Positions 3,042-55,849 of a DNA stretch of 64,000 bases are shown in pieces (position 1 is the first letter of the stretch; each line of letters begins with the position of its first letter). The translations under genes were made by a program, and so were the position numbers. A model generated the notes under the pieces. It worked only from the letters and a program-made list of their open reading frames with translations, did not search any database and was not told where the DNA came from. Source of the DNA: Promethearchaeota archaeon (lineage in GTDB: Archaea; Asgardarchaeota; Lokiarchaeia; Sigyniarchaeales; SOKP01). The stretch is from assembly GCA_048937405.1 (NCBI GenBank), contig JBHLNF010000014.1, forward strand, positions 9,546 to 73,545, written 5' to 3'.

Positions 3042-3068
3042 TTTGATTTTTTACTCTCTAAGCTGTAA

Positions 3069-11593: not shown

Positions 11594-13084
11594 TTGCACT
11601 TTATAATGAAATCTGTCTTAATTGCAAATCGTGGAGAGATTGCAGTAAGAGTTATTCGGACCTGCCGATCAAAAGATATTCAATCAATAGCAGTATTTTC
11701 CGAGTCAGATAAAGATTCTCTTCATGTAAAAATGGCTGATGAGGCTTATTCATTAGGGAATGAATCGATTCAGAGCACATATTTGAATATTCCTAAATTA
11801 ATTGAAATAATTGAAAGGTCAAAAGTAGATGCTGTCCATCCTGGTTATGGTTTTTTAAGTGAAAATGCCGATTTTGCTCGAGAAGTCATTAATCTTGGTA
11901 GAGATTTTATTGGACCAAATCCAGATACCATTGAATTCTTAGGAAATAAAATAAAAGCAAAAAAACGTGCTAAAAAAATTGGTTTACCCGTTTTGGAAGG
12001 TTCTGAAGAATTTGTTGACAATTTAGACGAAGCCAAATCAGTTGCAGATGAAATAGGATATCCTGTAATAATTAAGGCAGCCTATGGTGGTGGTGGTAGA
12101 GGTATGGAAATTGTTGAATCACATGAAGATATGGAGATTGCATTTGAAAGCTGCCAATCAATGGGATTAAATTTTTTTGGACGGAAAGAAGTATTTATTG
12201 AAAAAACTATTACAGAACCGCGCCACGTAGAGATTCAATTTATGGGAGATAATTTTGGAAATGTTGTTCATTTAGGAGATCGGGAGTGCACAATCCAAAG
12301 ATCATATCAAAAACTAATTGAGGAAGCACCCTCATTTTTAACGAGAGATGAGGTTATTGAATTAGGAGAAAAAACATGTTTATTAGCTTCTGACTTAAAT
12401 TATTCAAATATAGGAACCGCAGAATTTCTCTGGAAAGATGGTAATATTTATTTTAATGAAGTTAATCCAAGGATCCAAGTAGAGCATGTAGTTACAGAAA
12501 TGGTAACTGGAATAGATATTATTGAAGAACAGATAAATATTGCTTCAAATAAACCATTAAATTTCACTCAGGAAGATATTTCAATATATGGTCATGCAAT
12601 AGAATATAGGATTAATGCTGAAGATCCACATAATTCATTTTTCCCTCAACATGGAAAAATATCCAATTTGATAATTCCAGGAGGTCCAAAAGTGCGTTTT
12701 GATAGCTACTTATATCCAAATTATATTGTTCCTTATGATTTTGATCCATTAATAGGAAAATTAGTCGTTTGGGGACGTAATCGTAAAAGAGCTATTAGTA
12801 GTTCTAAGCATGCTCTAAAAGAATTGGTTATCTCAGGAATTAAAACAAACTTGGAAATGCATAAAGTAATAGTGGAAACAAGTGAGTTTAAAAAAGGGGA
12901 TTTATCAACGGATTTCCTAAATAAAATAAATATTGTTTATAACTTGAAAGACTTAGAGAGAAAGAAATTAGCCGCCGTTTTTCAATTATTCAACACGTTT
13001 GATTTTGCACCCCAACCTGAAAAGGATAATGATAAAAACTCACATAAATGGCGAGATATTGCTAAAATTGAGCAAATGGGTTAA
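11594..13084 (+). CDS. accC: Biotin carboxylase subunit of an acyl-CoA carboxylase (likely start ATG 11606)
   Basis: VLIANRGEIA, HPGYGFLSEN, GGGGRG, RECTIQR, EVNPRIQVEH, RINAEDP. Confidence 0.95.
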   Translation: MHFIMKSVLIANRGEIAVRVIRTCRSKDIQSIAVFSESDKDSLHVKMADEAYSLGNESIQSTYLNIPKLIEIIERSKVDAVHPGYGFLSENADFAREVINLGRDFIGPNPDTIEFLGNKIKAKKRAKKIGLPVLEGSEEFVDNLDEAKSVADEIGYPVIIKAAYGGGGRGMEIVESHEDMEIAFESCQSMGLNFFGRKEVFIEKTITEPRHVEIQFMGDNFGNVVHLGDRECTIQRSYQKLIEEAPSFLTRDEVIELGEKTCLLASDLNYSNIGTAEFLWKDGNIYFNEVNPRIQVEHVVTEMVTGIDIIEEQINIASNKPLNFTQEDISIYGHAIEYRINAEDPHNSFFPQHGKISNLIIPGGPKVRFDSYLYPNYIVPYDFDPLIGKLVVWGRNRKRAISSSKHALKELVISGIKTNLEMHKVIVETSEFKKGDLSTDFLNKINIVYNLKDLERKKLAAVFQLFNTFDFAPQPEKDNDKNSHKWRDIAKIEQMG

Positions 13085-13124
13085 ACATATCCAATAAATT
13101 TATTAAATAATAAGTTGATGTTTC

Positions 13125-13640
13125 TTATAAAACAGAAGTACTTTCTGTTATTTTTACTGAAGGTATATTCTCAATTTTAACTAGCTGTTGATCTTGACCT
13201 ACTATATCCTCAACTTCTACGAAGATTTGGGTTATCTTGCCGTTAATTGGAGATAATATCCGATTTTTCATTTTCATTGCCTCTAAGATCATAATTAATT
13301 GATCTTTTTCAACAATTTCCTGTTCTTTAATAAGAATTTGCAGAATCTTCCCGGGAATAGGTGCTTTTATAATCACATCTTTAGTCTCCTGATTTTGATT
13401 GTTATTTTCTACTGGCTTTAAGTAGGGTTTAATTTCAATATCGATTTCTTCTCCTTCTAAATATAAAGTTCCATTTATATATTCCAAATTGAATTGACAA
13501 TCTGCAAATGACACTCGAAACAAATTTTCAGTTTCCTGAACTACTACAGGTGTATAAATGTGATCATCAACTTTTATTTTCCCATCATCCAAGGGTTTAA
13601 CAATGTAAGTTCTACCCCGGAATTTTACTTTTTTTTTCAT
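13125..13640 (-). CDS. accB: Biotin carboxyl carrier protein
   Basis: APIPG...LEAMKM biotinylation motif in a C-terminal biotinyl domain. Confidence 0.93.
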   Translation of the reverse strand: MKKKVKFRGRTYIVKPLDDGKIKVDDHIYTPVVVQETENLFRVSFADCQFNLEYINGTLYLEGEEIDIEIKPYLKPVENNNQNQETKDVIIKAPIPGKILQILIKEQEIVEKDQLIMILEAMKMKNRILSPINGKITQIFVEVEDIVGQDQQLVKIENIPSVKITESTSVL

Positions 13641-13670
13641 ATAAAATCTCTCATTCTAAGTCATTTTTAA

Positions 13671-14456
13671 TTATAATAGATGAGTACTAAAAAATTCAAG
13701 AAGCTTTTCACGCATCAATTGAAAATGATTTTTATTTGTAAAATTATGATTAGCACCATCAATAATGTCAATACTCTTGATATTAGAATTAATTTTATTG
13801 AAAAGCTGATGAAATCCAAATTCTGGGAATAAAACATCCTTATTCCCCGCTATTAAGTAGAATGGTTTTACTAATTTATCCGCTAATCTGTCTGGATTAT
13901 ATTGTCTTGTTTGTCCTGCATACATATTCTTAATATCTCCTTCTGGAAATCGCATTTCCTTATTACGTGTTAAAGCTTTTATAAAAAATTTAAATAATGG
14001 ATTTTTAGGGACAATTTCAGTATCGAAAACAGGAGATCTTATAGCAAGACATTGGACTCTTCTATCTCTTACAGCATGACAAAAAGCCATTGCACCCCCA
14101 AAACTCTCTCCCAATAATCCAATTTTGAGAGGATTAATTTTAGGATGGTAAATTAAGAGGTCTATTACTCGTTCAATATTAGCGTGAGCATCATGATATG
14201 TAAAAATACCCGTACTATTTCTAACACCTTGATGATCATAAGAAAAAAAAGCAATATTTCTATCAATGAAATGATGTGCAAATCTTATTTCGTTTTCTTC
14301 TGGAGACTTTCCTGGCATACCACTGATATTTATTATTATTGGATAAGATTGATTTTCATCCGATTTAGGATTACTACCATCAGGTAAATAAAGAATACCA
14401 TGTAGAATTTCGGAACGGATTTCTATTTCTTTTATTTCTTTTATCATTCTTATCAC
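13671..14456 (-). CDS. Alpha/beta hydrolase, probable chain-releasing thioesterase
   Basis: GESFGG nucleophile elbow, GNKD acid, GANH His; the GTG start overlaps the megasynthase stop (GTGA), alternative ATG at 14447. The thioesterase role is inferred from context. Confidence 0.8.
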   Translation of the reverse strand: MIRMIKEIKEIEIRSEILHGILYLPDGSNPKSDENQSYPIIINISGMPGKSPEENEIRFAHHFIDRNIAFFSYDHQGVRNSTGIFTYHDAHANIERVIDLLIYHPKINPLKIGLLGESFGGAMAFCHAVRDRRVQCLAIRSPVFDTEIVPKNPLFKFFIKALTRNKEMRFPEGDIKNMYAGQTRQYNPDRLADKLVKPFYLIAGNKDVLFPEFGFHQLFNKINSNIKSIDIIDGANHNFTNKNHFQLMREKLLEFFSTHLL

Positions 14457-17400
14457 GTGATTATATTATTTTCTTTAAAATTTTTAATCTCACAATAAGA
14501 TAATACATATTTCTCATTGAATTCAACACTTAATTGTAGATCTTCAAGTATTTCATTGAATTTGGATAAGCTTTTTGTGAGTTTCACTTTAAAATTCTGA
14601 TGAATTTTATTATATTTTAATTCAATGTCTCTGAAATTTATATGAGTACCTTCACCAATTGCTTTTGAGAATGCTTCTTTTGCAGTCCAATATATCGTTC
14701 CTAATTGATCATCTTCTGAAATATCTTCTCTTTCCGATTCAGTAAATGCTTCCATATAGAAAGATTGAGATCGAGATTCAATTTTCTCTAAATCAATTCC
14801 AACTAAATTTTTACTAATAATTGCAATAGAAAATTCATTTGAATGAGTAATGGAAAGAAAAAGTGGAATTATTTGGTTATTCTTTAATGAATAGTAATAT
14901 GGTCTCCCTTTTTCATCTTTCTGTATTTCAATGTCCAGATAGGAAATATCAATTGGTGAATTTTTAAAATAAGATTCTTTTGCTGCTATGATTCCAGAAA
15001 AATATTCAATCTTTCTTTTTTGATTCCTAAATCGCACAGAATTGTCAAACTCTCTTTCAGTAAGGTATTTGTCTAAAAATTGAGGATAATTTTGAAATGA
15101 TTTTTTTATCATTTCGATAGGAATTATTTTTACCTCATGTTTTTGAGTTTTTTCTTTAAGTTTACAATATTCTAACAGTGTAGATAAATAATTGGAAAGA
15201 TTGTTGGAGAGATTAACTGAAATCTGTGTATGAATAATTTCTAAATTTTCTATTATTAAAATAACTTCTTGGTTTTCACTCAAAATTACTGAATTAAAAT
15301 AGGAACGTTCTTCATCAATTTTCAGAAATTCTGTTACAATATATTTTGGTTTTTGGTTTGATATTATTTTCATGGAAGAAATTTTAGAAGGAAGGGAGAG
15401 ATGATTATTAATGATAAAATCAAACAGTGCAGCTGTTTGGAATACACTCTCAATTGCTAATGGATTAAGCTGAAACATATCTCCCTCAATGTTATTAGTA
15501 AGAGGTTCTTTTGGTAGATCAATCTTTGAGATAATTTGCTCTTTTTCTAATTGAATTATTTCTTTTAGTACTTGGAATTTCTTACCGTGAAAAAATAGTT
15601 CATAAATCTGAGTTTTATCAAGCAGAGGTATTATTGGTTCTAAAATCAGTTCTTTTTTCCAATTCATCTCAATTAATGATTTATCGAATAGAGCACTGAA
15701 ATGTTCTTTTATAAGAGGTTTTCCTTTCAAAATAGGAGGAAAAGTCTTCGATAAAAATTTTATTTCGTTATCAGATTTATTAAAGATTACTTCTACACTA
15801 ATTGATTTATCTATTGGAATCTTCAAGGGCGTATGAAAACTAATATTTGAAATTGAATTCATAGGTTTATCAAAGATTCGATTATAGAATTCTGCAAATG
15901 TTTCTAAAACCATTACACCTGGAAAAACGGGTTTTTGCTGAATTTGATGGTCAAGAAGATAAGTATCGAATTTAGAATTTATGGTATTCAAACCAATAAT
16001 GTGGTCAGCCTGATAATTTATTTTTTCTATCATAGGATATTCTAATTTATTGACTACTTCCCCGACATCAAGCATTTCCTCAAAGAATCCTAAGTTTCCA
16101 GCAATGATATATTCACCTGTAAAATTGTTTAATACTAATTTAGAAAAAATCTTAGTACCCGTTTTAGAGGGAATAGGAGTAACCCCCGCTTGAGTAAGGA
16201 CTTGAAGTGTAGAACCTCTAGTAGCCATTCCAATTTCGCCCCATGCTGTCCAATCAAAAGTTAAAAATTGAATGTTTTGTTGGTTGAATTTCCAAGCCAA
16301 TCTTGACAGATAAGCATTCGCAAATGCATAATCTATCTGACCTTGATTACCATAACGTCCAGCAACTGAAGCAAAAGCAATAAAATATTTTACATCTTGT
16401 AGTTTTATATACTTAATTATGTTTGAAAATCCTCCGACTTTAACACTAACAATTTTGTGAGCCATATTTAAATTTTTCTTCAAGAAGCTTTTTGATTCTT
16501 CAATACCAGCACCATGAACTATAATTGTTATTGGTTTTTTTGTTTGTTTTTTAATTTTTTGAAAGATAATCTTCATTTCTTCTTCATTTGTTATATCAAC
16601 CGCATAATATTGAACTGAAAGCCCTTTATTTTTTAAATTTTCGACATTTCGAAGTGTATCCAACTTATCGAGAAATTTCTTCCATTCTTTATTGATTATG
16701 ACAGGAGTTACTTTATCTTGTTTAGATTTCAATGATTTAACGAATTCTTGTTTTTTCTCATCTAACATATCCGATGAATAGTTAAGATATTCATAAAATG
16801 AATCATCAAAAGGAGCTAAACCTAAAAGTATTAATTCTGGCTTAATATGATTTGTTAATTCATCAATACACGCAAATGTGATTCCTTGCGCTCCTCCTGT
16901 AACCAATAATACATCATCTTTGGTTATTGTTACTTGGTTTAGTTCGGGAAGATCTTCTATCTTCTTTCTCAGCAAAGTATAACGAGCATTATCTTTATAT
17001 GCAATTTCCTCAAGTTTATCCCATCCCAAGAATTCTTGTGTAATTTGTTTAATATTCATTGAAGCTATAATCTTAATAGGAATCTGAAACTCTCGATTAA
17101 TAGTTTTTATAAACGCACCGATACTAGATGAGAGAGGATTAGCACCTTGTTCCCAACCAAACATATTCTCAGGAGAAAGGACCAAAATTTTCTCAATAAT
17201 TGATATATTTAAAGATTTAAAAATAAGAAATAGAATGTCAAAGATGTCTAAACTATCATCAATAGAATACTGGCCATTATCTGGGGATATTAATATAATT
17301 ATCTTGAAATCCTTATTAGATATGACATCAGGAACTTTATTTCTAAACTCCTCAACGCTTTTTTTATCTCCATTAGCATTGTAAATATGGATGTCCATCC

Positions 17401-20400
17401 CAAAATTTTTGAAATCTTCAATTAGATTTTTATGATTGGATAGTCCTGAATTAATATTAATTACTAATGTTTTAATATTATCAAATTTCGGCGTTTTCTC
17501 CGAAGAAACTAATTTAAAAACTCGAGTTGGGACTACTTGTGAAATACCAATTGAATCAACTTCTTCTGACTTCTCTTTAGATTTAGAGATACCACTTGAG
17601 GTTGTTAAGGATATTTCAGGCACTTTTAATTCTTCACCTATAAATCTCATTATAAATTCAATAATTGCATTAGGTGTGCGTATATCAGCCAAATTAACCT
17701 CAATGTTATCCTCTAGATTGTAATGATTCCTTAATTCTCCAAATATTTCCGCTTGTTTTACAGTATCAATCCCAAGATCTTCTTCTAAATCATATTCATC
17801 ATCAATATCTTGAATATCATAACCTGTTTTGTCCGCAATAATCCTCTTTACTAAATTTTTGACCTGATTTATCTCATCATTTATATTTTGTTGTGATTGT
17901 ATCATATCTGGTATTACACTTACATCTGGTTCTATGTTTTGATCAATTACATACTCTTGTATTTTTTGAATTATATTATTGATAGTTCCTAATCCTACTA
18001 AATTTATTTCTGTGTCCTGCGAGATATTCAATTGATTTCGTAATTCTCCAAAAATTTCAGCTTGCTTAACTGTATCAATACCTAAATCTTCTTCTAGATC
18101 AAAATCAACATCAATATCTTCAATATCATATCCAGTTTTTTCAGAAATGATTTGAATTAATTTAGTTTCAAGAGTTTTACTCTCAATACGGGTAATTTCT
18201 TTGCTGGATGATATATCTAATCCCAAATATTCGTTTAGCATCAAAACAATAGAATTGATGGTACGATAATCTGCTATATTAAATGTATCATCAACTTCAA
18301 TTCCCCATTTTTCTCTAATTTCCCCAAATATTTCTGCTTGTTTTACAGTATCAATTCCTAGATCTTCTTCTAAATCATAAGTTTCTTCAATGTCTGACGG
18401 ATCATAACCTGTTTTTTGTGCGATAATATGCTTAATTTCATCTAAGATATTACTTGAGTAAATCGAGGTTGCCTTTTGGGAAAATTCTGTTGCTTTTGGT
18501 GATATTAAAGTTGTTTTTCTAGTAGAGATAGGTTCTACATTCATTTTTAATATTCGACCATCCATGAATGTCAGTTTCCTACTTCCCCCTACACTTTGAA
18601 GCCATTTATCATAATTTGGATTTATAAACCGATTTTCAAATGAGAATAAGCGAAATAATACAAATGCTAATTGAGAACCAAATCCAGCAGCAAAACGTAA
18701 TGCATATTTCTTTCTTTCTCTTAACCCTTTTGAAAAATTAAATTTTATAAAATCGGGATCAATTTTTTCAATATTTGCAATTGGAGGAATTTTTCCTTTT
18801 TCCATTGATTTAATAGCCACTGCTTCCTCGATACCAGCTCCCATTGCATGACCAGTATATCCTTTAGTGTTAATTATAAGCATATCATAAGCATTTTCAC
18901 CAAATGCTTTTTCCAATGCTAATAATTCCGATTCAGCACTTCCACCTCGAGCAGGGGAATAAGTCTCATGACTTACAAACATACCTTCTTTTGCTAAAAC
19001 ACTTCTGTTAATGCCGTGAATCTTTTCCATTTTTATTATAAAATTGTTGAATTTTTGAGAAATATCATCTTTATCTAATCGACTACCATGATATGCACTA
19101 TTACTAAAGAAAGATCCAAGAATTTCTACAATTGGTTTAACTCCCCGATTTTCAGCTTCAGATTGTTGTTCAAGAACAAATGCACTAGCCCCAGCACCTA
19201 AAATAATCCCATTTCTTCCTTTCCCGAATGGGAGTACTGCATCTTCCCAGTTAGATTGCGTTGTACCGGCACCATTTGCTATAAAACCTGCTCCAATCCA
19301 TTGAAATAGATTTTTACTTGTTACATCATCAGCTGTAATTACAATAACTCGTTTACATCTATTATTTCGTATCCAATCTTCTGCTATACTAATCGCTTGG
19401 GGTGCAGTAGCGCAAGCAGCATTAGTAGCCGTATTGGGACCTTTTGCTTTAATTAATTGAGCAAATTGGGAATGACCCATTGATAATACTCTAAATAAAA
19501 ATGAACGATTAAATGTGTTATCCCCATCTTCAGGATTATTTAATTGATTCTGATCTTTATTAGAATGTAATAAGCATTCCTCAGCAAAATTATCATATCC
19601 TGGAAAAGCCGAAGCAAAAATAACTCCAGTATCATCCTGTAAAGACTCTGGTAAAGTCCAATCACCAAATAATGTCTTTCCTGTAGTTGTTTTAATAGTA
19701 CTACGGATTAATGGAATTCCAGCATCTTTAAGTGCTTCATAGCCAGCACATATTGCTAATTGAAATGTAATATCCAATGCATTAAGCATCTTAGGATCGA
19801 GTTGATAATCTTCTGTAGGATTAAATTTTCCTAATTCTCCTGCTAAATGGATTACTTTAGAAATATCATCTATAGGTACAAATTTTGCATTACCATCAGC
19901 TGATTTTTCTAAACGGATTATATTCTTTTTTAATAAATCTAATTTATATTCTTCGCTTACCATTTCTATGAAATTTTTTCCATCTAAAATATCATCGATG
20001 TTCTTATCATCAAAAACATTACGATTTTTACCAGGAAGTCCAATACCTACTCCAGTGATTACTACTGGAGAAGACTTTTGCATTAATTCATATTTGCCAA
20101 ACTGGTTTTCAAGAGAAGATTGATATTTTTTTAAATAATTATGAAATCCCTGAATTATTACTGAAGATAATAGTTCCTTTTGTTCCTCTAAAAACTCATT
20201 AAAAAATGGAAGTTGCTTTATCTGAAGTAATTCTTCATTCGAAATTAAATTATCATCCATTGTTGATGAAGTTGTGACCTTTTTCACAATATCTTGTTTC
20301 TGATTTCTTACTGATGGAGATGAAATTTTAATTTCCTTAGCACTCTTCATTGTTCTTGGCGACTTATACTTCTTAAAAATTTTTAGAAGATGTTCTTCTT

Positions 20401-23400
20401 CTAAAGATTTCGGAGAAAGGGTGAAATCAATTTCAATATCCTTGTAATTTTTTAAAATGTCCTTTGCAAAAAAGAATAGAGCCTTTTTTGGACCTATTTC
20501 TAAGAACTTTCTTCCTCCTAATTGATAGATATTTATAATTTCATCTACCCATCTAACAGGTGAAGTAATTTGTTTAAGTAAAATAGACTGAATCTCACGA
20601 GGATCATTAAGATATATCTTTCCAGTTACATTACTAAATACTGGTATTATAGGAGATTTAAATTCTATTGATTTTAAAAAATCCTTCAACTTTTCTTCAG
20701 CATGAGCTACATATTTAGAGTGAAATGCATTTGAAACATTTAATTTCATGGCTCTTATTTCTTTTTCTGAGAAAGCCTTAACTACTTCCCCAACTGCAGA
20801 TAATTCTCCCGATATAACTGTTTGAGATGTAGAGTTATAGTTAGAAATTGACACATTTTTTATAGAAGTTTTATTTAATATTTTCTCAACTATTCCAGGT
20901 GATGTAAAGATCGCCGCCATAGAACATTCAACACCTGGAGGTAACTCAGACATTGCTTTTCCTCTGTTAATTACAATTTTTAGTGCATCCTCAAAATTTA
21001 ATACCCCTGCTGTAACTAAAGCAGAAAATTCACCTAAACTATGTCCACCAACAATTCCAGGAACAATACCCTTAGTTTTAAAGAGTCTTACTAAAGCAAT
21101 CTCAATTGAATAGATTGCTGGTTGAGTATACTCAGTTTGTCTTAATCTATTCGAGTTTTCTTCCTGCGATAAATTTGGTGATCCAAAAATCACTTCCAAT
21201 AAATTAAATCCTCCAAAATTCTTACATATTTCGTTTGCATTGTCAAGTGTGTCTTTAACAACTTGAAATTTTTCATATAGTTCTCTTCCCATCCCTACAT
21301 ATTGACTTCCTTGACCACTAAACAGAAAACATATATCAGATGATTGAGAGCTTTTTGAAAGATCAAGCGGTGATTTAAGATGATCATGTATAGGAGATTG
21401 AATCTTGGATTGAATATGGGCTTGCGATGTATATTCTTCGAGGATAATATGATAATTCGTCCCACCAAATCCAAATGAGGAAACACCAGCCCTTCTAACC
21501 CCCGATGAAGGAACTAACCACTCTTTTGGTTCTGTATTTACATAATATGTACTAGTACTCCAATCTATTGCTGGATTTAAAGTTGAGATATTTATTGATG
21601 GTGGAATAATTTTATTATGTAATGCTAAAACAGTCTTAATTATAGCAGCAATTCCGGCAGCACTTTTAAGATGACCAATTTGACTTTTTACTGACCCGAT
21701 TGCAAGTTTCTGATTGAGATCTCTCTCAGAAAACACTTTATTTAATACTTCCAATTCAGCAACATCTCCAACTGCCGTTGATGTTCCATGACATTCAAGA
21801 TATTGAAGGTCTGATTGATTTAAATTACTATTTTCCAATGCTCGCTGAATAGCTAATTTTTGTCCGTCAGGATTAGGTGCAGTTATCCCCTTTCCTTTTC
21901 CATCTGAAGAAGCTCCACATCCGGAGATAATTGCATAAATTTTATTTTTATCTTGAATTGCATCTTCAAGACGCTTTAAAACAATAAATCCCGCTCCTTC
22001 ACCAATAACAAATCCATTGGCACGAGCATCAAATGGATAAGATCCATCTTCAGATAATGCCCCAATCTTACAGAATTTGATGTACGTTTGAGGATCAACT
22101 GAACTATCAACACCACCAGCAAGAACTATATCATAGTCTTTTAGAAGTAAACCTTTAACTGCAGTATCAACTGCGGCCAGACTTGAGGCACACGCAGCAT
22201 CAGTTGTCATATTTTTGCCAGTTAAATTAAATACATTTGCTACTCTACCTGCTATTATGTTTGATAATTCTCCTGGCATTGTATCTTCGTTGATCACAGG
22301 AATTTGACTAATAATTTTTTCTTCAAGAAAATCTAGAAGTTTTTCTTTTTCTTCTTGATTTAGAATCATCTGAGAACTTGCCTCATTGATTCGATATTTC
22401 ACTTCATTAAAGTGAATACGTTTAGTAGTAAGACGTTGATTATCTCCCCCTAAAGAATTACCGACGATAACAGCTATAGGTAAGCGTTGTTTCCCATCAG
22501 TAGGATAACCTGCGTCAATGAGTGCCTCTTCAGCTGTAATGATTGCCCATTTTTGAACAAAATCCATTCTCTCTGCTATCTTTGGAGGAATACGATATTT
22601 TATGGATTTGAACTCAAAATTTTTTACAAATCCACCAATTTTTGTATAAGTTTTATCGATGGAAGAAGGATCTTTATCATAATAGATATCAGGATCCCAT
22701 CTATCTTTTGGAACTTCTGTTATTGAATATTTTTTATTGATAATATTATCCCAATATTGTTGAATATTCTCAGCATCTGGAAAAAGACCTCCTAAACCAA
22801 CAACGGCAATCTTATTTTCATTTGACATTTTCTTTTGTTCCTCTTTATCAAAATCTAGAGATTTTTTTTCTGAAGTTAAACATAATACTTGACTAGAAGT
22901 CTTTCTAATAAATTTAGATCCACCTTCGATTATATCATAATGTATTTGGGGGATCGTTCTAATCGATTTTTGAAAAGAAATAGAATCGCCAGTCATAAAA
23001 GCACCTTTAGTTAATTGATCTTCAGTAGAAATTGGAATAAATTGAGATGTGCCTTTTCCCTCTTCATGATTATCATTCCAAATCTCCGCCCTAGAAGCGA
23101 TTCTAAGTGCTCCTAAATTTTCTTTCTCATATAACTCTTTTCTTTGGGAAATAGAAATTCCCTGTGCTTTTCTTGATAATTCTCGTTCAATAGTTTGATG
23201 CGAAAATTCATTAGGAATAACTCTTGCTCTAGTATTTACAGTGGTGCCAATTACATGTGTGGATGAACTATTTAGTAATATTTCTTGATATTTTGGTGAT
23301 AAAGCCTTAGTTGAAACAATTTCTTCGCTTAAGAGATAAGCAGTTCCCATTTGAATACCCGGGTTAATAAGATCCAAATGATTCCCAATCATACCTGCTA

Positions 23401-24991
23401 CCATTGCAGAACTTACTTCATTAATAATTCCACCTGCGAACACAATATTTACTTTTTCTGTAAAATTCTTTTCATTCGCATCTATATATTCTAATATAGA
23501 TTCCCAAAGAATAAGGGAGGACAATATCCCAAAATGACCTCCACATTCACTACCTTCTAATATCACATAATCAAGCTTTTTTTTAATAGCCTCTTTAAAC
23601 ATGGTAAGTACAGGTGTGTGAATTAATATGATATTACCTGAATTTTTAATTTGAACACCAAGATCAATAGTTCCCGCTGCAATTAATGTGATTTTAGGAC
23701 CAAATTTCGAAATACACCTAAGATGCTCATCTCTACGCGTTTTTACAACATCTAAGCCTATGATTCCACATCCATATGGCTTTTCTGATAAAAAGTATTC
23801 ATTTGATGCTGATAAGAGTTTACTTGTTTCATCTGATAATAATCCCCCGAGAGCTAATATTGGAAGTGCTCCATTATCTGCAATTTTTTTAGCAAAATCT
23901 AATTTATCAGAGACATTCGCCATTGGACCTTGAATAATAGGATATATAATCCCTAATTTTTTAGCAAATTCAGAATTTATAGCAAAAGGCCAGTGTTCTA
24001 CACTATTTTTAATTTGATTTTTAATTATTTTAATTAAATTGTTAAGAAAATTTTCTAAGTTATGAAATTTATTTAAAATATAGTTAGCAAAACAGATTCC
24101 ATGATCACTTGATAATAAGGAGTGCTTTGGATCAGCATCAGATGGTATCTGTAAATTATCTAAAATTTTTGTAATTTCTTGAAAAAATCGATATTTAAGG
24201 GTTTGATAATCATTATTAAAGTCCTTATCTAATTTCATAAAATCTTTTTGTTCAAGTTCTTTTATTAATCGGATTGACTTATTTGCTAATTTCCCAATTA
24301 AACGATAATTATATATCGAAGTTTCCTGAATAAGATAAAAATCATTTACATCAATAGTTTTAATGTAATTCTTATATTCTTGACTTAAAGGGGATTCTGG
24401 TAGTAAGTATAACTGACTTTCTAACACAACCCCTATAGCACCACCAATGAAGGCTGTACATATAGTATAAACTCCAAATCCTCCTTGAATTATGAATGAA
24501 AGTCCTGCTTTTTGGAATTCTTGAATAAGGATGAAACTATTTTTTCTACCAACTATACCACCTGCTTCATTTCCTTTTACAAGAAATAAATCTGACCATT
24601 CTGCTTTTTCATAAGCTTCTTCTAAGTATGATACTTCAGAAAGAAGCAATTTTGAATTTTTTTGCATTAATTCAATCTCTTTAAAATTTGGAGAGAAAGC
24701 ACAAATAATAATTGGGATTACTTCTCGGAATTCTAGAGCGTTTAAGATTTCGGGAGTAGAAATTCGAATACCCCATTCATAATCGGAAGATAAGGATGAG
24801 GTCATTTTATTAACAAGGACTTGACATTGATTTAAATCAAGTCCATCCAAATCAACTAACCCAACTCCACCAACTCGACTTACTTGAACAGAAAGTAAAG
24901 GATCAGTCATCCCTTTAGGTGAAAAGCCCCAAATAGGGATAGTATTTTTCAAAATTTGTTGGATGTTCTCTTTCTTTATCATAAAAATCAA
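14453..24991 (-). CDS. Iterative type I FAS/PKS (Pfa-like) megasynthase: psiER-ER-KS-AT-KS-ACPx3-KR-DH-PPTase (likely start ATG 24982)
   Basis: Uninterrupted 3512-aa ORF with motifs PIIQGPM/ECGGH, DAACASS/HGTST/IGH, GQGSQ/GHSLG/AFHS, NAACAT/HET/TGH, 3 x LGIDTVKQAE, TGGAQGI/QIDYAFAN, HQIQQKPVFPG, GIDLE/WTAKEA. Confidence 0.95.
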   Translation of the reverse strand: MIFMIKKENIQQILKNTIPIWGFSPKGMTDPLLSVQVSRVGGVGLVDLDGLDLNQCQVLVNKMTSSLSSDYEWGIRISTPEILNALEFREVIPIIICAFSPNFKEIELMQKNSKLLLSEVSYLEEAYEKAEWSDLFLVKGNEAGGIVGRKNSFILIQEFQKAGLSFIIQGGFGVYTICTAFIGGAIGVVLESQLYLLPESPLSQEYKNYIKTIDVNDFYLIQETSIYNYRLIGKLANKSIRLIKELEQKDFMKLDKDFNNDYQTLKYRFFQEITKILDNLQIPSDADPKHSLLSSDHGICFANYILNKFHNLENFLNNLIKIIKNQIKNSVEHWPFAINSEFAKKLGIIYPIIQGPMANVSDKLDFAKKIADNGALPILALGGLLSDETSKLLSASNEYFLSEKPYGCGIIGLDVVKTRRDEHLRCISKFGPKITLIAAGTIDLGVQIKNSGNIILIHTPVLTMFKEAIKKKLDYVILEGSECGGHFGILSSLILWESILEYIDANEKNFTEKVNIVFAGGIINEVSSAMVAGMIGNHLDLINPGIQMGTAYLLSEEIVSTKALSPKYQEILLNSSSTHVIGTTVNTRARVIPNEFSHQTIERELSRKAQGISISQRKELYEKENLGALRIASRAEIWNDNHEEGKGTSQFIPISTEDQLTKGAFMTGDSISFQKSIRTIPQIHYDIIEGGSKFIRKTSSQVLCLTSEKKSLDFDKEEQKKMSNENKIAVVGLGGLFPDAENIQQYWDNIINKKYSITEVPKDRWDPDIYYDKDPSSIDKTYTKIGGFVKNFEFKSIKYRIPPKIAERMDFVQKWAIITAEEALIDAGYPTDGKQRLPIAVIVGNSLGGDNQRLTTKRIHFNEVKYRINEASSQMILNQEEKEKLLDFLEEKIISQIPVINEDTMPGELSNIIAGRVANVFNLTGKNMTTDAACASSLAAVDTAVKGLLLKDYDIVLAGGVDSSVDPQTYIKFCKIGALSEDGSYPFDARANGFVIGEGAGFIVLKRLEDAIQDKNKIYAIISGCGASSDGKGKGITAPNPDGQKLAIQRALENSNLNQSDLQYLECHGTSTAVGDVAELEVLNKVFSERDLNQKLAIGSVKSQIGHLKSAAGIAAIIKTVLALHNKIIPPSINISTLNPAIDWSTSTYYVNTEPKEWLVPSSGVRRAGVSSFGFGGTNYHIILEEYTSQAHIQSKIQSPIHDHLKSPLDLSKSSQSSDICFLFSGQGSQYVGMGRELYEKFQVVKDTLDNANEICKNFGGFNLLEVIFGSPNLSQEENSNRLRQTEYTQPAIYSIEIALVRLFKTKGIVPGIVGGHSLGEFSALVTAGVLNFEDALKIVINRGKAMSELPPGVECSMAAIFTSPGIVEKILNKTSIKNVSISNYNSTSQTVISGELSAVGEVVKAFSEKEIRAMKLNVSNAFHSKYVAHAEEKLKDFLKSIEFKSPIIPVFSNVTGKIYLNDPREIQSILLKQITSPVRWVDEIINIYQLGGRKFLEIGPKKALFFFAKDILKNYKDIEIDFTLSPKSLEEEHLLKIFKKYKSPRTMKSAKEIKISSPSVRNQKQDIVKKVTTSSTMDDNLISNEELLQIKQLPFFNEFLEEQKELLSSVIIQGFHNYLKKYQSSLENQFGKYELMQKSSPVVITGVGIGLPGKNRNVFDDKNIDDILDGKNFIEMVSEEYKLDLLKKNIIRLEKSADGNAKFVPIDDISKVIHLAGELGKFNPTEDYQLDPKMLNALDITFQLAICAGYEALKDAGIPLIRSTIKTTTGKTLFGDWTLPESLQDDTGVIFASAFPGYDNFAEECLLHSNKDQNQLNNPEDGDNTFNRSFLFRVLSMGHSQFAQLIKAKGPNTATNAACATAPQAISIAEDWIRNNRCKRVIVITADDVTSKNLFQWIGAGFIANGAGTTQSNWEDAVLPFGKGRNGIILGAGASAFVLEQQSEAENRGVKPIVEILGSFFSNSAYHGSRLDKDDISQKFNNFIIKMEKIHGINRSVLAKEGMFVSHETYSPARGGSAESELLALEKAFGENAYDMLIINTKGYTGHAMGAGIEEAVAIKSMEKGKIPPIANIEKIDPDFIKFNFSKGLRERKKYALRFAAGFGSQLAFVLFRLFSFENRFINPNYDKWLQSVGGSRKLTFMDGRILKMNVEPISTRKTTLISPKATEFSQKATSIYSSNILDEIKHIIAQKTGYDPSDIEETYDLEEDLGIDTVKQAEIFGEIREKWGIEVDDTFNIADYRTINSIVLMLNEYLGLDISSSKEITRIESKTLETKLIQIISEKTGYDIEDIDVDFDLEEDLGIDTVKQAEIFGELRNQLNISQDTEINLVGLGTINNIIQKIQEYVIDQNIEPDVSVIPDMIQSQQNINDEINQVKNLVKRIIADKTGYDIQDIDDEYDLEEDLGIDTVKQAEIFGELRNHYNLEDNIEVNLADIRTPNAIIEFIMRFIGEELKVPEISLTTSSGISKSKEKSEEVDSIGISQVVPTRVFKLVSSEKTPKFDNIKTLVININSGLSNHKNLIEDFKNFGMDIHIYNANGDKKSVEEFRNKVPDVISNKDFKIIILISPDNGQYSIDDSLDIFDILFLIFKSLNISIIEKILVLSPENMFGWEQGANPLSSSIGAFIKTINREFQIPIKIIASMNIKQITQEFLGWDKLEEIAYKDNARYTLLRKKIEDLPELNQVTITKDDVLLVTGGAQGITFACIDELTNHIKPELILLGLAPFDDSFYEYLNYSSDMLDEKKQEFVKSLKSKQDKVTPVIINKEWKKFLDKLDTLRNVENLKNKGLSVQYYAVDITNEEEMKIIFQKIKKQTKKPITIIVHGAGIEESKSFLKKNLNMAHKIVSVKVGGFSNIIKYIKLQDVKYFIAFASVAGRYGNQGQIDYAFANAYLSRLAWKFNQQNIQFLTFDWTAWGEIGMATRGSTLQVLTQAGVTPIPSKTGTKIFSKLVLNNFTGEYIIAGNLGFFEEMLDVGEVVNKLEYPMIEKINYQADHIIGLNTINSKFDTYLLDHQIQQKPVFPGVMVLETFAEFYNRIFDKPMNSISNISFHTPLKIPIDKSISVEVIFNKSDNEIKFLSKTFPPILKGKPLIKEHFSALFDKSLIEMNWKKELILEPIIPLLDKTQIYELFFHGKKFQVLKEIIQLEKEQIISKIDLPKEPLTNNIEGDMFQLNPLAIESVFQTAALFDFIINNHLSLPSKISSMKIISNQKPKYIVTEFLKIDEERSYFNSVILSENQEVILIIENLEIIHTQISVNLSNNLSNYLSTLLEYCKLKEKTQKHEVKIIPIEMIKKSFQNYPQFLDKYLTEREFDNSVRFRNQKRKIEYFSGIIAAKESYFKNSPIDISYLDIEIQKDEKGRPYYYSLKNNQIIPLFLSITHSNEFSIAIISKNLVGIDLEKIESRSQSFYMEAFTESEREDISEDDQLGTIYWTAKEAFSKAIGEGTHINFRDIELKYNKIHQNFKVKLTKSLSKFNEILEDLQLSVEFNEKYVLSYCEIKNFKENNIIT
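14480..15080 (-). other. Megasynthase domain: Sfp-type 4'-phosphopantetheinyl transferase
   Basis: KGRP, LSITHS, VGIDLE, FTESE, WTAKEAFSKAIG. Confidence 0.88.
15220..16040 (-). other. Megasynthase domain: PKS-type double-hotdog dehydratase
   Basis: LLDHQIQQKPVFPG (Hx8P), FFHGKKFQ, PLAIESVFQ (ExxxQ in place of DxxxQ). Confidence 0.8.
16060..17480 (-). other. Megasynthase domain: ketoreductase with structural subdomain
   Basis: LVTGGAQGIT, VHGAG, FASVAGRYGNQGQIDYAFAN. Confidence 0.9.
17635..18450 (-). repeat. Megasynthase domains: three tandem ACP-like repeats with Thr at the attachment site
   Basis: KTGYD...DLEEDLGIDTVKQAEIFGE three times; Thr codons at 18347-18349 (ACT), 18071-18073 (ACA), 17762-17764 (ACT). 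Confidence 0.9.
18650..20070 (-). other. Megasynthase domain: ketosynthase 2 (divergent, triad retained)
   Basis: VVITGVGIGLPG; NAACAT (Cys codon 19412-19414); SHETY; NTKGYTGHAMG; AGFGSQ. Confidence 0.85.
20400..21340 (-). other. Megasynthase domain: acyltransferase, malonyl-CoA-type signature
   Basis: FSGQGSQ, GHSLG (21032-21046), conserved Arg (NRG), NAFHS (20717-20731), EIGP. Confidence 0.9.
21430..22813 (-). other. Megasynthase domain: ketosynthase 1
   Basis: IAVVGLGGLFP; DAACASSL (Cys codon 22190-22192); HGTST; KSQIGH; GFGGTN. Confidence 0.95.
22900..23950 (-). other. Megasynthase domain: FMN-dependent FabK/PfaD-type enoyl reductase
   Basis: PIIQGPM (23921-23941), ECGGH (23534-23548), FAGGI, MGTAYL. 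Confidence 0.85.
24380..24940 (-). other. Megasynthase domain: degenerate FabK/PfaD-like enoyl-reductase barrel
   Basis: KGNEAGGIVG (His of EAGGH absent, ~24551-24568), IIQGG, GVVLESQL. Confidence 0.65.
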
Positions 24992-25003
24992 TTATATATA
25001 CTA

Positions 25004-26575
25004 TTATACTGGGGAAATCCCATGTTTTCGTTTAGGAGTCTGTTCGCGCTTATTTTCAAGGATTTTTATACTTTTAATAATTTCATCACGGGTTTCATGA
25101 GGAAAAATTACTTTGTCTACATATCCTTCTTCAGCTACTTGAAATGGATTTGCAAATTCCTTTTTATATTGTTCAGTAAAATTCCTCAATAATTCCTCTG
25201 GGTCTTCTACTTCTTTTAAGCGATTTCTGAAAAGAATTCGACATGCACCCTCAGCACCCATAACTGCAATTTGCGCTTTATCCCATGCAATATTGATATC
25301 TGAACCCAAATGTTTAGAACTCATGACAATATAAGCCCCCCCATAAGCTTTACGTAAGATCACTGTTATTTTTGCTACTGTTGCTTCTGAATACGCAAAA
25401 AGCATTTTAGCACCATGTCTGATAATTCCTGATTGCTCTTGTCTAATTCCTGGCATAAATCCTGGAACATCAACCAATGTTAAAAGAGGTATATTAAATG
25501 CGTCACAAAATCGAATAAATCTGGTCGCTTTATCTGAAGCGTCACAATCAATGGCACCACTAAGGAACATAGGTTGATTTGCAATTATACCAATAGTATG
25601 ATTATCTATCCTTCCAAAACCAACTACTATATTCTTAGCCCAATCTGAGAATAATTCTAAAAATGAATTTTGATCCACTATTACTTCAATAATTTTTATC
25701 ATATCATAAGGTTCGTCTTCATTTTCTGGAACTAATTGATTTAGTAAAGAAGGATCAGCCACTTCAATTTGTCTTAATAAATGAGGGATGTCATCAACAT
25801 TATTGGAGGGTAAATAAGATAGTAATTTCTTAGTAAATTCTAATGCTTCTTCTTCAGTATCCACAGTTGCATGACATACCCCTGATTGAGTAGAATGAAC
25901 TTTTGAACCTCCCAGTTCTGATAAAGATATATTTTCTCCCGTTACTGAATTTACTACTTGAGGTCCAGTGATAAACATAAAAGATTTATTTCCGCCCATA
26001 ATAATAAAATCTGTTAAGGCAGGAGAATAGGCGGCACCTCCTGCAGAGGTTCCTAAGATAACTGATATTTGAGGAATAATTCCTGAGGCGCAAACATTTC
26101 GATAAAATATTTCTCCTAAGCCTGCTAATGCATCAACACCTTCTTGAATCCTAGCACCCCCAGAATCAATTAGACCAATTATAGGATATCCCATTTTCAA
26201 AGCTAAATCCATAACTTTACAAATTTTTTGAGCATGAGCCTTTCCAAGAGTACCCCCTAATACAGTAAAATCTTGACTATAAATAAACACTTTTCGACCA
26301 TCTATAGTGGCATGTCCAGTTATCACACCATCCCCAAGAATTTTCTTTTTTTCCATTCCAAATTTATCATTGTGATGTTTGATGAATGAATCGATTTCTA
26401 CAAAAGAGTTATTATCAACCAAAAGCTCAATTCTCTCTCTGGCTGTTAATTTTCCCTCTTTATGTTGAGCATCAATTCGTTCTTGACCACCCCCTAATTT
26501 AGCTTTAATACGTAATTCTTGTAGTCTACTTTTGATTCCTGGAATTTTATTGGATTTATTATTCTCTAATATCAT
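25004..26575 (-). CDS. Acyl-CoA carboxylase carboxyltransferase subunit (PccB/AccD single-chain type)
   Basis: GKLTARERI, DFTVLGGTLG, DSGGARIQEG, DVPGFMPG, RKAYGGAY, KRKHG; ends 12-21 bp before the megasynthase start. Confidence 0.95.
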   Translation of the reverse strand: MILENNKSNKIPGIKSRLQELRIKAKLGGGQERIDAQHKEGKLTARERIELLVDNNSFVEIDSFIKHHNDKFGMEKKKILGDGVITGHATIDGRKVFIYSQDFTVLGGTLGKAHAQKICKVMDLALKMGYPIIGLIDSGGARIQEGVDALAGLGEIFYRNVCASGIIPQISVILGTSAGGAAYSPALTDFIIMGGNKSFMFITGPQVVNSVTGENISLSELGGSKVHSTQSGVCHATVDTEEEALEFTKKLLSYLPSNNVDDIPHLLRQIEVADPSLLNQLVPENEDEPYDMIKIIEVIVDQNSFLELFSDWAKNIVVGFGRIDNHTIGIIANQPMFLSGAIDCDASDKATRFIRFCDAFNIPLLTLVDVPGFMPGIRQEQSGIIRHGAKMLFAYSEATVAKITVILRKAYGGAYIVMSSKHLGSDINIAWDKAQIAVMGAEGACRILFRNRLKEVEDPEELLRNFTEQYKKEFANPFQVAEEGYVDKVIFPHETRDEIIKSIKILENKREQTPKRKHGISPV

Positions 26576-27254
26576 TTTAATCCATCCTTTCTTTATTTAA
26601 ACGTATATTTTTTTGAATTTTTACTTAGATATGGATCGATTTAAATAAATAAAAGAAGAAGATTAATTTCTAATATAAATATTATACCACAAAAAATACG
26701 ATGATTGATATTATTCGATGAAGCTCATTAAAACATTCACTATTCTCCCCTTATGAAGTAAAAAATTTTTATTTTTTGGTTATTCATTTTTAAATAAAAT
26801 TGATTATTAAAAAATTTATTTAATTTTAATAAAAAAATAATACAGCTCTTTTTAGCTTATTCTAAAGAATGGAAAGAAATTGAACCATAATTCAATTGAA
26901 TCGTCATTCATTCGACTTTACAATCATCGAAAAATCTCATATACTTTATAAGGGGCTATCATCAGAAGAAAATAAGATTTTATCTTATGCTTAGTTATTA
27001 TTTATCATAGATTAATCAAAATAAACTAATAAATAAGAATATGATAAATAAAAAGTAAAAGTATTAATTTTTTTTATTTATTCGGAATTAAATCATTTTT
27101 GTGAACGAAAACAATAAAAAACTCAATATTAATAGTGATTTAATTTTTTAATATATTTCCCTATAATTAGTCCTATCAAATTTATAAGTTTTTAAGTAGA
27201 ATCTCTTTTTATCTATAATAGGATATAATAATTGTTGATAAATTCTGTTCTATA

Positions 27255-28013
27255 ATGCTTTCAAAAATTAAAATTATACATATTAATAAAACCAGCTCTA
27301 CCCAAGATGCAATACTTGAGTACTTTCGAAATGATTATCACCCCTCAATATTGCTGATTGCAAAAACCCAAACTAAAGGGCGTGGAAGACAAGAAAATGA
27401 CTGGTTCTCACCAGAAGGTGGATTCTGGGGTACTTTAGGAATATCTAATTCATCATTATTAGAAAAATGGCAATTAGCTTTATTTCATTATTTTACAGCA
27501 ACCTTGCTTGTAAGGGTAATTAAAGAAGAATATAAAATATTATTACAAATTAAATGGCCTAATGATATCTTATTTGAAAATAAAAAATTAGCAGGTATTT
27601 TAATAGATTATGTTGTTAGCGCTCAAAAAAATTATGTCCTAATTGGAATTGGCTTGAATTTAAACAATTCAAGGACCACCATGCCAGAAGATTTAGAACC
27701 GATAACAATATCAATCAAAGATATATTGCATAAACCTGTATCTTTAGATAATTTTGCCCATAAGATTTGTAATTATGCTAATGAGTATTATTCTCCAATC
27801 ATAGAAAATGATGACGAACAAATTAATTATTTAATCGAAGAATATAATCGATACTCACGAATTTATGGAAAAGAAGTTATTCTTGATGATTCAAAGAAAT
27901 ACTACTGTTTTGGAATCAATAAAGAAGGATTAATGCAATTTTCAAATGAAAAAACTAAATTAAATTTATCAATTGATGATTTAACAAGGATAAAAAAGAT
28001 ACTATCCATATAA
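27255..28013 (+). CDS. birA: Biotin-protein ligase without N-terminal HTH
   Basis: STQ, QTKGRGR, WFSP, IKWPND, KLAGIL, IGIGLN. Confidence 0.92.
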   Translation: MLSKIKIIHINKTSSTQDAILEYFRNDYHPSILLIAKTQTKGRGRQENDWFSPEGGFWGTLGISNSSLLEKWQLALFHYFTATLLVRVIKEEYKILLQIKWPNDILFENKKLAGILIDYVVSAQKNYVLIGIGLNLNNSRTTMPEDLEPITISIKDILHKPVSLDNFAHKICNYANEYYSPIIENDDEQINYLIEEYNRYSRIYGKEVILDDSKKYYCFGINKEGLMQFSNEKTKLNLSIDDLTRIKKILSI

Positions 28014-28114: not shown

Positions 28115-28597
28115 ATGCTAATGAAGAATTTTAAAATACCTTATAATCTCAAACCAACTAATCCAATTGAAGAATTTGTTGAAGTAAAAGAAAGTGAAAT
28201 TCATGGATTAGGATTGTTTGCCAAGATGAATATTCCAAAAGGAACAATTTGGTGGCATGCTCGTCCACAAGATGTACTAATTATAACAAAACATCAATTT
28301 TTAGTTCTTGATTCATCTCAGAAATCTAAAACATTGAACGATTTTTTACATCACTTATTGACCTATTCTTATTATGATAAATATCTTGATTCTTTAATAT
28401 TATGTCTAGATAATTCAAGATTCGTAAACCATTCTTTTAATGCTAATTCTGGGGCATCTGAGAATGAAAATGGATTTTATGCCGTTGCGATAAAAGATAT
28501 TCCACCAGGGAAGGAAATTACAGAGGACTATACTAAATATTCTTTATGTGATTGGCTAAAAAAGTATAAGGAATATTTTGATCCTTGTTGTTGGTAA
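28115..28597 (+). CDS. SET-domain protein (putative lysine methyltransferase)
   Basis: SEIHGLGLFA, RFVNHS, DIPPGKEITEDY, Cys-rich tail (C...PCCW). Confidence 0.85.
   Translation: MLMKNFKIPYNLKPTNPIEEFVEVKESEIHGLGLFAKMNIPKGTIWWHARPQDVLIITKHQFLVLDSSQKSKTLNDFLHHLLTYSYYDKYLDSLILCLDNSRFVNHSFNANSGASENENGFYAVAIKDIPPGKEITEDYTKYSLCDWLKKYKEYFDPCCW

Positions 28598-53599: not shown

Positions 53600-55849
<2,250 letters not shown>

Follow-up and report, generated by a model that had tools for sequence, protein, structure and literature searches.

A predicted carrier-dependent acyl-chain synthase system encoded by a native gene cluster of Asgard archaea

Can an archaeon build acyl chains on a carrier protein? 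It has been stated that archaea lack the type I and type II fatty-acid synthases (FAS I and FAS II) as well as phosphopantetheinyl transferase, and that nearly all of them lack acyl carrier protein (ACP) (bioRxiv 10.1101/2024.07.05.601840). The question is raised by six clustered genes in a 64-kb stretch of DNA (hereafter the window; contig JBHLNF010000014.1) from a Promethearchaeota archaeon of the Loki type. They encode a megasynthase of more than three thousand residues, the biotin carboxylase (BC), biotin carboxyl carrier protein (BCCP) and carboxyltransferase (CT) of an acyl-CoA carboxylase, a biotin protein ligase (BPL) and an alpha/beta hydrolase. Judging from the genes and their active-site motifs, we propose that the cluster, which is native to Asgard archaea, probably specifies an iterative type I synthase of the fatty-acyl (highly reducing polyketide-type) kind as a self-contained system. 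The stated lack of ACP and FAS is contradicted by the cluster in part of the Asgard phylum.

The genes are arranged as BPL, then CT, megasynthase, hydrolase and BCCP in one run, and finally BC (Table 1). An earlier interpretation made from the letters alone (the sequence-only reading) had placed six open reading frames here, with neighbours inside the run spaced by 12 bp, -4 bp and 30 bp and no frameshifts. Each frame was located where it had been placed, the gaps are correct for those gene calls, and the megasynthase frame 14453-24991 contains neither a stop nor a frameshift. The likely start of the megasynthase is ATG 24982, and a 100% identical database copy has 3509 residues, three codons shorter; the hydrolase probably starts at ATG 14447, its Met4 being invariant among orthologues. 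With the revised starts the gaps would probably become 21 bp between CT and megasynthase and +5 bp between megasynthase and hydrolase, and the packing would still be tight. The activities assigned in the sequence-only reading were all confirmed by Pfam and NCBIfam searches. The intergenic region between the divergent CT and BPL genes is presumed to hold a shared promoter.

The domain order of the megasynthase is ER'-ER-KS-AT-KS2-ACPx3-KR-DH-PPTase, comprising two enoyl-reductase-like domains, two ketosynthases (KS1 and KS2), an acyltransferase (AT), three tandem ACPs, a ketoreductase (KR), a dehydratase (DH) and a phosphopantetheinyl transferase (PPTase). KS1 carries the motifs DAACASS, ECHGTST and IGHLKSAAG. 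The active site of KS2 is preserved among the homologues, with the Cys and the first His in 120/120 and the last His in 119/120. KS2 is thus predicted to be a second competent ketosynthase, and the alternative that it is a Cys-less chain-length factor (CLF) was ruled out. The AT domain scores 240 bits against the NCBIfam model FabD (cut-off 260.9), and its AFH motif is invariant in homologue set A1; by the usual AFH rule it would be of the malonyl type, which suggests the use of malonyl units.

The ER domain matches FabK in PDB sequence searches, and Foldseek gave TM scores of 0.84-0.88 against named FabK entries versus 0.53-0.56 against PfaD. Its ECGGH motif is kept in 52/52 homologues. Motif comparison revealed that ER' has Ile146 (NEAGGI) at the position of the His of ER. 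An AF2 model of residues 1-715, covering both domains, forms one compact unit (pLDDT 88, pTM 0.91). In a report on related synthases, ER domains are described as acting as dimers, and thraustochytrid polyunsaturated fatty acid (PUFA) synthases as pairing two different ER domains (PMC13311796). We infer that ER' and ER make up an intramolecular inactive/active pair, in which ER' is probably the non-catalytic partner. The catalytic motifs of the megasynthase are all retained across homologues that are merely 30-50% identical, and the genome search found no ACP domain or PPTase outside the megasynthase in the host. The condensation and complete KR-DH-ER loop proposed in the sequence-only reading are thereby borne out at the level of domains, with catalytic residues intact.

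Based on these assignments, we propose the following cycle. BPL would biotinylate BCCP, and BC, BCCP and CT would carboxylate acetyl-CoA to malonyl-CoA for the acyl-synthase pathway alone. The fused PPTase would prime the three tandem carriers, apparently on threonine. AT would load malonyl units, and KS1 and KS2, both predicted to be active, would extend the chain. In each round the chain would be reduced by KR, DH and the FabK-type FMN ER, paired with its presumably inactive partner domain. Finally, the translationally coupled Ser-Asp-His hydrolase would release or transfer the chain.

Table 1. Features of the window discussed in the text (positions count from the first letter of the window; res, residues).
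Feature	Position	Strand	Description
BC	11594-13084	+	496 aa; convergent with the operon; Pfam Biotin_carb_N/CPSase_L_D2/Biotin_carb_C
BCCP	13125-13640	-	171 aa; Pfam Biotin_lipoyl; EAMKM biotinylation motif; syntenic
Hydrolase	13671-14456	-	261-aa alpha/beta hydrolase; Pfam Hydrolase_4; candidate chain-release enzyme
Hydrolase triad	14103-14105; 13836-13838; 13746-13748	-	Ser118; Asp207; His237; invariant in 9 Asgard orthologues
Megasynthase	14453-24991	-	3512 aa; Pfam, NCBIfam and PDB sequence searches
PPTase	14456-15124	-	res 3290-3512; fused, Sfp-type; Pfam ACPS in two stretches; PDB matches AcpS and Sfp
DH	15182-16024	-	res ~2990-3270; PKS-type double-hotdog; Pfam PKS_DH_N and PS-DH; His3015 in H-x8-P
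KR	16232-17314	-	res ~2560-2920; Pfam KR 99.6 bits; Tyr2888 in YAFAN motif
Three tandem ACPs	17642-18454	-	about res 2180-2450; Pfam PP-binding x3; GIDT cofactor site
ACP threonines	18347-18349; 18071-18073; 17762-17764	-	Thr2215 (ACT); Thr2307 (ACA); Thr2410 (ACT)
KS2	18632-20074	-	res 1640-2120; Cys1860, His2008, His2048; aligned to the FabF active site
AT	20432-21334	-	res 1220-1520; Pfam Acyl_transf_1; GHSLGE (Ser1318) and AFH motif
KS1	21404-22819	-	res 725-1196; Pfam ketoacyl-synt and Ketoacyl-synt_C; Cys934, His1068, His1107
ER	22922-23977	-	res 339-690; FMN-type, FabK-kind enoyl-ACP reductase; His486
ER'	24002-24991	-	res 1-330; Pfam NMO 26 bits, below cut-off; second NMO/FabK-like barrel
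CT	25004-26575	-	523 aa; fused beta and alpha, PccB/MmdA type; Pfam Carboxyl_trans 602.7 bits
CT-BPL intergenic region	26576-27254		679 bp, AT-rich; putative shared promoter region
BPL	27255-28013	+	252 aa; divergent from the operon; NCBIfam TIGR00121 129.5, above cut-off 83.1
Ras-family small GTPase	4438-4968		
Ras-family small GTPase	8272-8829		
HTH-TPR protein	9447-11378	+	flanks the cluster
SET-domain gene	28115-28597	+	
M3 peptidase	28737-30527	-	
PAS histidine kinase	32455-37428	+	1657 aa; at least six PAS domains
Ras-family small GTPase	37609-38802		
PAS kinase	42128-44041		
PAS kinase	45341-47335		
katG	53600-55789	-	GC 0.48, GC3 0.45

No FabA-type isomerising dehydratase was seen, though no genome search was aimed at a FabA-type DH or PfaB; on this basis a long acyl chain, saturated or almost so, is the most likely product. 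The AF2 model of the hydrolase (pLDDT 90.4) is nearest in fold to the lipase TTL, feruloyl esterases and monoacylglycerol lipases, with the hydrolases DcsB and GrgF, which act in release from polyketide synthases (PKS), lower in the list. Its score against BAAT_C is 19.9 bits, below the cut-off of 20.9. In the family of the host genome, high-identity orthologues sit only beside the megasynthase or its remnant. The sequence-only reading had called the enzyme thioesterase-like; what we found is a lipase/esterase-type alpha/beta hydrolase for which release or transfer of the acyl chain is a plausible role.

How widespread is the system? The megasynthase (query residues 600-3512) was searched in 399 genomes of the phylum and was found in 71 of them. 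In addition to the host it occurs in 9 of 53 congeners and 11 of 133 genomes of the same family, and in three other families it is present in 29/31, 12/12 and 12/12 genomes; many families have none. The synthase is therefore not rare in Asgard archaea, and three families have it in all or almost all genomes. Synteny of the six genes extends across Loki- and Heimdall-type genomes, with identities of 30-84%; one example is the closed chromosome of Heimdallarchaeum aukensis (CP084166).

Trees were built from KS domains only, since most high-scoring segment pairs break in the KS-AT linker. In a FastTree of 193 rows, all Asgard-named sequences fall within a single 90-row set, where the window belongs to a Loki clade (98), and 69 of the 70 bacterium-labelled rows lie outside this set. 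The exception is a Zixibacteria (TPA) metagenome-assembled genome (MAG) among Heimdall-type rows, which are also joined by one Bathyarchaeia (TPA) row; both labels are probable mis-assignments. Thermoplasmatota copies cluster with bacteria. In a 56-row IQ-TREE under a mixture model, a branch (SH-aLRT 98) separates off the Asgard set, with zero bacterium-labelled rows in it. The first tree served to choose this set, and some of its sequences are unnamed. Since the root is not fixed, the tree does not show which way the genes moved between Asgard archaea and bacteria.

Within the genus the cluster is accessory and dispensable, as it is missing from 44 of 53 congeners, 100%-complete genomes included. 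In the closest congeners, whose M3 peptidases are 83-85% identical, the bracketing genes abut in the order HTH-TPR(+), M3(-), SET(+); among these genomes are one that is 100% complete and some that consist of a single contig. Cluster-bearing congeners show two arrangements, HTH-cluster-M3 as in the window and HTH-M3-cluster. The SET and M3 genes stand in the order SET-M3 here and M3-SET in the cluster-less congeners. The locus has thus been rearranged, not merely interrupted, and a simple insertion between flanking genes was ruled out as the whole story by this swap together with the two arrangements. In congener G187 (contig C1, about 412.7-413.1 kb) all that is left of the megasynthase is a PPTase fragment made up of its last ~90 residues, which lies beside intact hydrolase, BCCP and BC genes and adjoins an N-terminally truncated radical-SAM gene, while CT and BPL are gone. 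Provided that the assembly is sound, this remnant reads as a scar left when the cluster was deleted. The simplest account is that the cluster was inherited within the genus and lost repeatedly, and congeners may also have exchanged it.

The sequence-only reading had connected the locus with the archaeal-to-eukaryotic lipid transition and had proposed a check for glycerol-3-phosphate acyltransferases. The host genome does encode candidates next to its archaeal GGGP synthase: a tandem PlsC-type protein of 555 residues with two acyltransferase domains (1204-2871 of the extracted region of contig C13, near the contig end), and on contig C4 two neighbouring ~400-aa PlsY-like genes (1559-2770 and 2966-3988 of the extracted region) beside a TFIIB-type gene. 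One PlsY-like protein, of 403 residues, consists of a PlsY domain and a C-terminal extension of ~215 residues with no Pfam match. Searches with PF13685 (glycerol-1-phosphate dehydrogenase) and the GpsA N-domain gave only weak, uninformative matches. The synthase could accordingly be imagined to provide, through these PlsY-like and tandem PlsC-like enzymes, the main fatty-acid stock of a membrane that is mixed or consists of ester phospholipids as in bacteria or eukaryotes. Such a role is consistent with the ester-lipid gene potential noted for some Lokiarchaea (PMC12993045) and with the occurrence of ~400-aa PlsY-like genes in 11/12 megasynthase-bearing genomes of the family versus 65/122 others. 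With 76 of 134 family genomes carrying them, these genes are only mildly enriched with the synthase and far more widespread than it.

The distribution of PlsC argues against this role. Synthase and PlsC are found in 29/31 versus 0/31 genomes of family f13, 12/12 versus 0/12 of f18, 0/22 versus 22/22 of f16, and 11/133 versus 110/133 of the host's own family; the fused tandem form, common in the own family, is thus missing from two families that carry the synthase in all or nearly all members. Co-travel of PlsC-type acyltransferases with the synthase was ruled out by this uncoupling, and gene co-occurrence lends no support to the proposed link to the membrane transition. PlsX makes the acyl-phosphate needed by PlsY from acyl-ACP, and no PlsX was found in the search of the host genome. 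Therefore, the synthase is not tied to the canonical ester-phospholipid route. Heimdallarchaeum species have likewise been reported to lack PlsC (PMC8813620), and the absence of the cluster from most congeners also speaks against a bulk membrane role, which we regard as unlikely. The cultured Loki-type strain MK-D1 has isoprenoid lipids and was reported without ester-lipid genes (PMC7015854), which fits a patchy accessory trait. With the cluster optional in the genus and independent of PlsC, the product is most likely an accessory ("secondary") lipid.

Several points weigh against the proposed acyl-synthase system. By motif matching, DH has Glu3181 in ExxxQ, where PKS dehydratases usually show DxxxQ. 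The hydrolase showed no specific match to thioesterase families (e.g. PF00975, hotdog TE), but only to general alpha/beta-hydrolase families. The preference of CT for acetyl-CoA is only a prediction, since its best NCBIfam model is that of the methylmalonyl-CoA decarboxylase mmdA/PccB type (TIGR01117), with a score of 731.8 below the cut-off of 998.8. The sequence does not reveal how long the chain is or how far it is reduced. Finally, all three ACPs carry Thr at the residue that aligns with the phosphopantetheine-bearing Ser of PigH, a bacterial ACP and AcpM. To our knowledge, all characterised carrier proteins use Ser at this site and Thr-linked phosphopantetheine has not been shown for any of them; no paper describing it was found in the open-access literature.

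Such carriers might be unprimable, leaving the megasynthase inactive or dependent on a carrier-independent or differently modified route. Of the carrier priming that the sequence-only reading had assumed, the fused PPTase and the three ACPs are indeed present, but the threonines mean that priming cannot be taken as given. However, Thr is found at 363/375 ACP motif matches in the 120 best homologues and at 207/210 in the fetched archaeal and bacterial loci, among them the strain-titled records Ornatilinea apprima P3M-1 and Thermanaerothrix daxensis GNS-1. These enzymes have a PPTase as a fused domain or as a neighbouring gene, the catalytic motifs persist at low overall identity, and the dedicated carboxylase and BPL are retained, all of which would be unexpected for a dead enzyme. 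A decaying system gets deleted, as the scar in G187 illustrates. Inactive carriers are, in our view, quite improbable. A few relatives have Ser or mixed sites, namely CP084166 (S-T-S) and P0092, P0075 and P0032, with SSSS among the patterns of this set; these family members are natural variants useful for comparing Thr and Ser as carrier residues.

The three parts of an archaeal/actinobacterial-type acetyl-CoA carboxylase (ACC), namely BC, BCCP with its biotinyl-Lys motif and CT, are all present. BC scores 598 bits against NF006406, below the cut-off of 739, and is syntenic in Asgard loci at 45-84% identity. These genes might instead serve central metabolism (propionyl-CoA/methylmalonyl-CoA or oxaloacetate/pyruvate) and merely stand beside the synthase, as the mmdA/PccB-type match of CT and the matches of BC and BCCP to pyruvate-carboxylase models could suggest. 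But CT, single-copy in the host genome and located in the cluster, occurs in exactly the 12 megasynthase-bearing genomes among the 134 of the family (12/12 versus 0/122), in a single copy and always adjacent; family relatives lacking the synthase have no carboxyltransferase at all. Similarly, BPL is present in exactly 10/10 megasynthase-bearing genomes of the genus versus 0/44 others, always in the cluster, and the carboxylase-synthase association recurs in Heimdall-type and bacterial loci. The restriction of CT and BPL to megasynthase-bearing relatives indicates that the carboxylase and the biotinylation step serve the acyl-synthase pathway, and a central-metabolic assignment is very improbable.

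The cluster is also native to its host. The window is part of contig C22 in a 4.47-Mb genome of 29 contigs, each with 27-31% GC, and the genome is 100% complete by marker genes. The sequence-only reading had taken the host to be Loki-like. This holds, since the genome is of the Promethearchaeota/Loki type and Asgard-type genes (three Ras-family GTPases, LRR and SET-domain proteins, PAS histidine kinases and LeuRS) stand on the flanks. Twelve window genes across both flanks have congener orthologues at 66-96% identity, and the nearest megasynthase homologues, 64-75% identical, come from Promethearchaeota (Loki-type) MAGs, one of them labelled Hodarchaeota. The cluster genes lie within the genome's range of third-codon-position GC (GC3) and codon usage, while katG is the most extreme codon-usage outlier tested (genome mean GC3 0.19) and likely a recent foreign gene. 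The least credible reading, that the cluster is bacterial DNA which was mis-binned, joined into a chimeric contig or recently transferred, can draw on the wide occurrence of the family in bacteria (~50% identity in KS-AT) and on an estimated contamination of 5.7%, but has against it the absence of any N run, and hence of a scaffold gap near the cluster, from the window, the flanking genes and their orthologues, the native codon usage beside the outlying katG, the same cluster in independent Asgard assemblies, closed genomes included, and the grouping of the Asgard KS domains. The old, assimilated acquisition that had been suggested agrees with this codon usage, the cross-class synteny and the KS tree.

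Which known synthases does the system resemble? The closest are the "Type R" pfa-like secondary-lipid synthases of Koribacter, Solibacter, Elusimicrobium and Roseiflexus, described in a paper that does not mention archaea (Shulse & Allen 2011, PMC3098273). Both have KS, AT, a second KS-like domain, tandem ACPs and KR in one pfaA homologue (KS-MAT-CLF-ACP(3-6)-KR in Type R, KS-AT-KS2-ACPx3-KR here), a PPTase, an uncharacterised product and, in some Type R clusters, an ACC gene. Bacteria of the Type R phyla are the nearest non-Asgard relatives, at ~50% identity in KS-AT and with the same Thr-type ACP sites; in a tree lacking the paper's own Type R references, KS domains of Elusimicrobia, Chloroflexi and Acidobacteria are the nearest bacterial ones and form a polytomy with the Asgard set. 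The systems differ in that the PPTase is a separate downstream gene in Type R and a C-terminal fusion in the Asgard protein, which in addition has a fused DH in its C-terminal part, the tandem ER'-ER at its N-terminus and an archaeal host. The Asgard cluster further adds the full ACC set, BPL and hydrolase, and the domain named CLF in PMC3098273 keeps Cys-His-His in all 120 sequences examined.

The best NCBIfam match of the megasynthase is PfaA (TIGR02813), at 923 bits below the cut-off of 1010.1. In bacterial PUFA synthases PfaA works together with PfaB, PfaC (KS-CLF and a FabA-type DH), PfaD and PfaE. Common to both systems are the tandem ACPs, the KS-AT head and KR-DH tail, and an ER activity of the FMN type. 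Unlike in PfaA systems, the Asgard ER is in cis and FabK-like rather than PfaD-like. PUFA-synthase ACPs use Ser, whereas the Asgard ACPs carry Thr at the aligned position. A PfaC-like KS gene was not found in the host genome, the sole other PF00109 match being marginal (20.6 bits, contig C2). Similar to the Asgard protein are the all-in-one megasynthases of Desulfomonilaceae and the larger type I PKS of Desulfobacterales ("Type S"-like); the Desulfomonile-type proteins have ~3,570 residues, the same Pfam set, NMO-type ER and PPTase included, and Thr-ACPs. However, they are only 36-37% identical over the best local alignment, their KS domains group with those of bacteria and away from the Asgard sequences, and a single partial locus that was fetched did not show the ACC/BPL/hydrolase synteny.

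Fungal and Corynebacterium-Mycobacterium-Nocardia (CMN) type I FAS combine an FMN-dependent TIM-barrel ER with an integrated PPTase. The Asgard protein shares both, and yeast FAS is a distant fold match to its ER region (rank 49), but the likeness is no more than a resemblance: the domains follow another order in a different architecture, there is no sequence-level family match, and the Asgard KS-AT is PKS/PfaA-like. The animal-type FAS I (KS-MAT-DH-ER(MDR)-KR-ACP-TE) has another order, whereas the Asgard ER is of the FMN/NMO type, no TE domain is present and the hydrolase is a separate gene. The ACP-independent FAS complex of Sulfolobus, proposed as the archaeal fatty-acid route with Asgard archaea included, is CoA-based, with ketothiolase/DUF35 and separate reductases (bioRxiv 10.1101/2024.07.05.601840); it has no ACP, PPTase or malonyl-CoA. 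In the open-access literature no Asgard megasynthase was found, save for a PUFA-like PKS noted in 2020 in one Heimdall MAG (PMC7472256), and the sole source that a 2026 Asgard review gives for scattered ester-lipid gene potential is Villanueva 2017 (PMC12993045).

Several neighbouring features were observed as well. The HTH-TPR protein next to BC belongs to a large paralogous family with at most nine matches per genome in the genus, and paralogues of it border the cluster in several congeners. The three Ras-family GTPase genes lie within 35 kb, and one of them is fused to a 165-residue N-terminal region. The large histidine kinase of Table 1 is accompanied by two additional PAS kinases. The MAG records JBHLKM010000009 and JBHLOF010000049 belong to the same genus as the host genome and are labelled by their submitters "Hodarchaeota" and "Promethearchaeota", so that the names are inconsistent.

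Taken by its sequence, the cluster is a real, native, conserved yet dispensable Asgard variant of a known but uncharacterised synthase family, with predicted product and carrier chemistry. We further put forward, as a tentative idea that may well fail, that 4'-phosphopantetheine is borne on threonine through the fused PPTase and that the whole cluster dates to the common ancestor of the Loki and Heimdall types. If this were true, the lineage that founded the eukaryotes could have made fatty acyl chains before, or independently of, the mitochondrial endosymbiont. Its dispensability in Loki-type genomes and its uncoupling from PlsC mean that no bacterial-type membrane should be concluded from the cluster. 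A considerable share of the Asgard phylum, with nearly all members of three families, carries a complete gene set for carrier-dependent acyl-chain synthesis together with its own substrate supply. This raises the questions of fatty-acid synthesis in Asgard archaea, of a threonine-linked cofactor, and of which lipid the cluster-bearing strains may possess that their cluster-less sister species lack.

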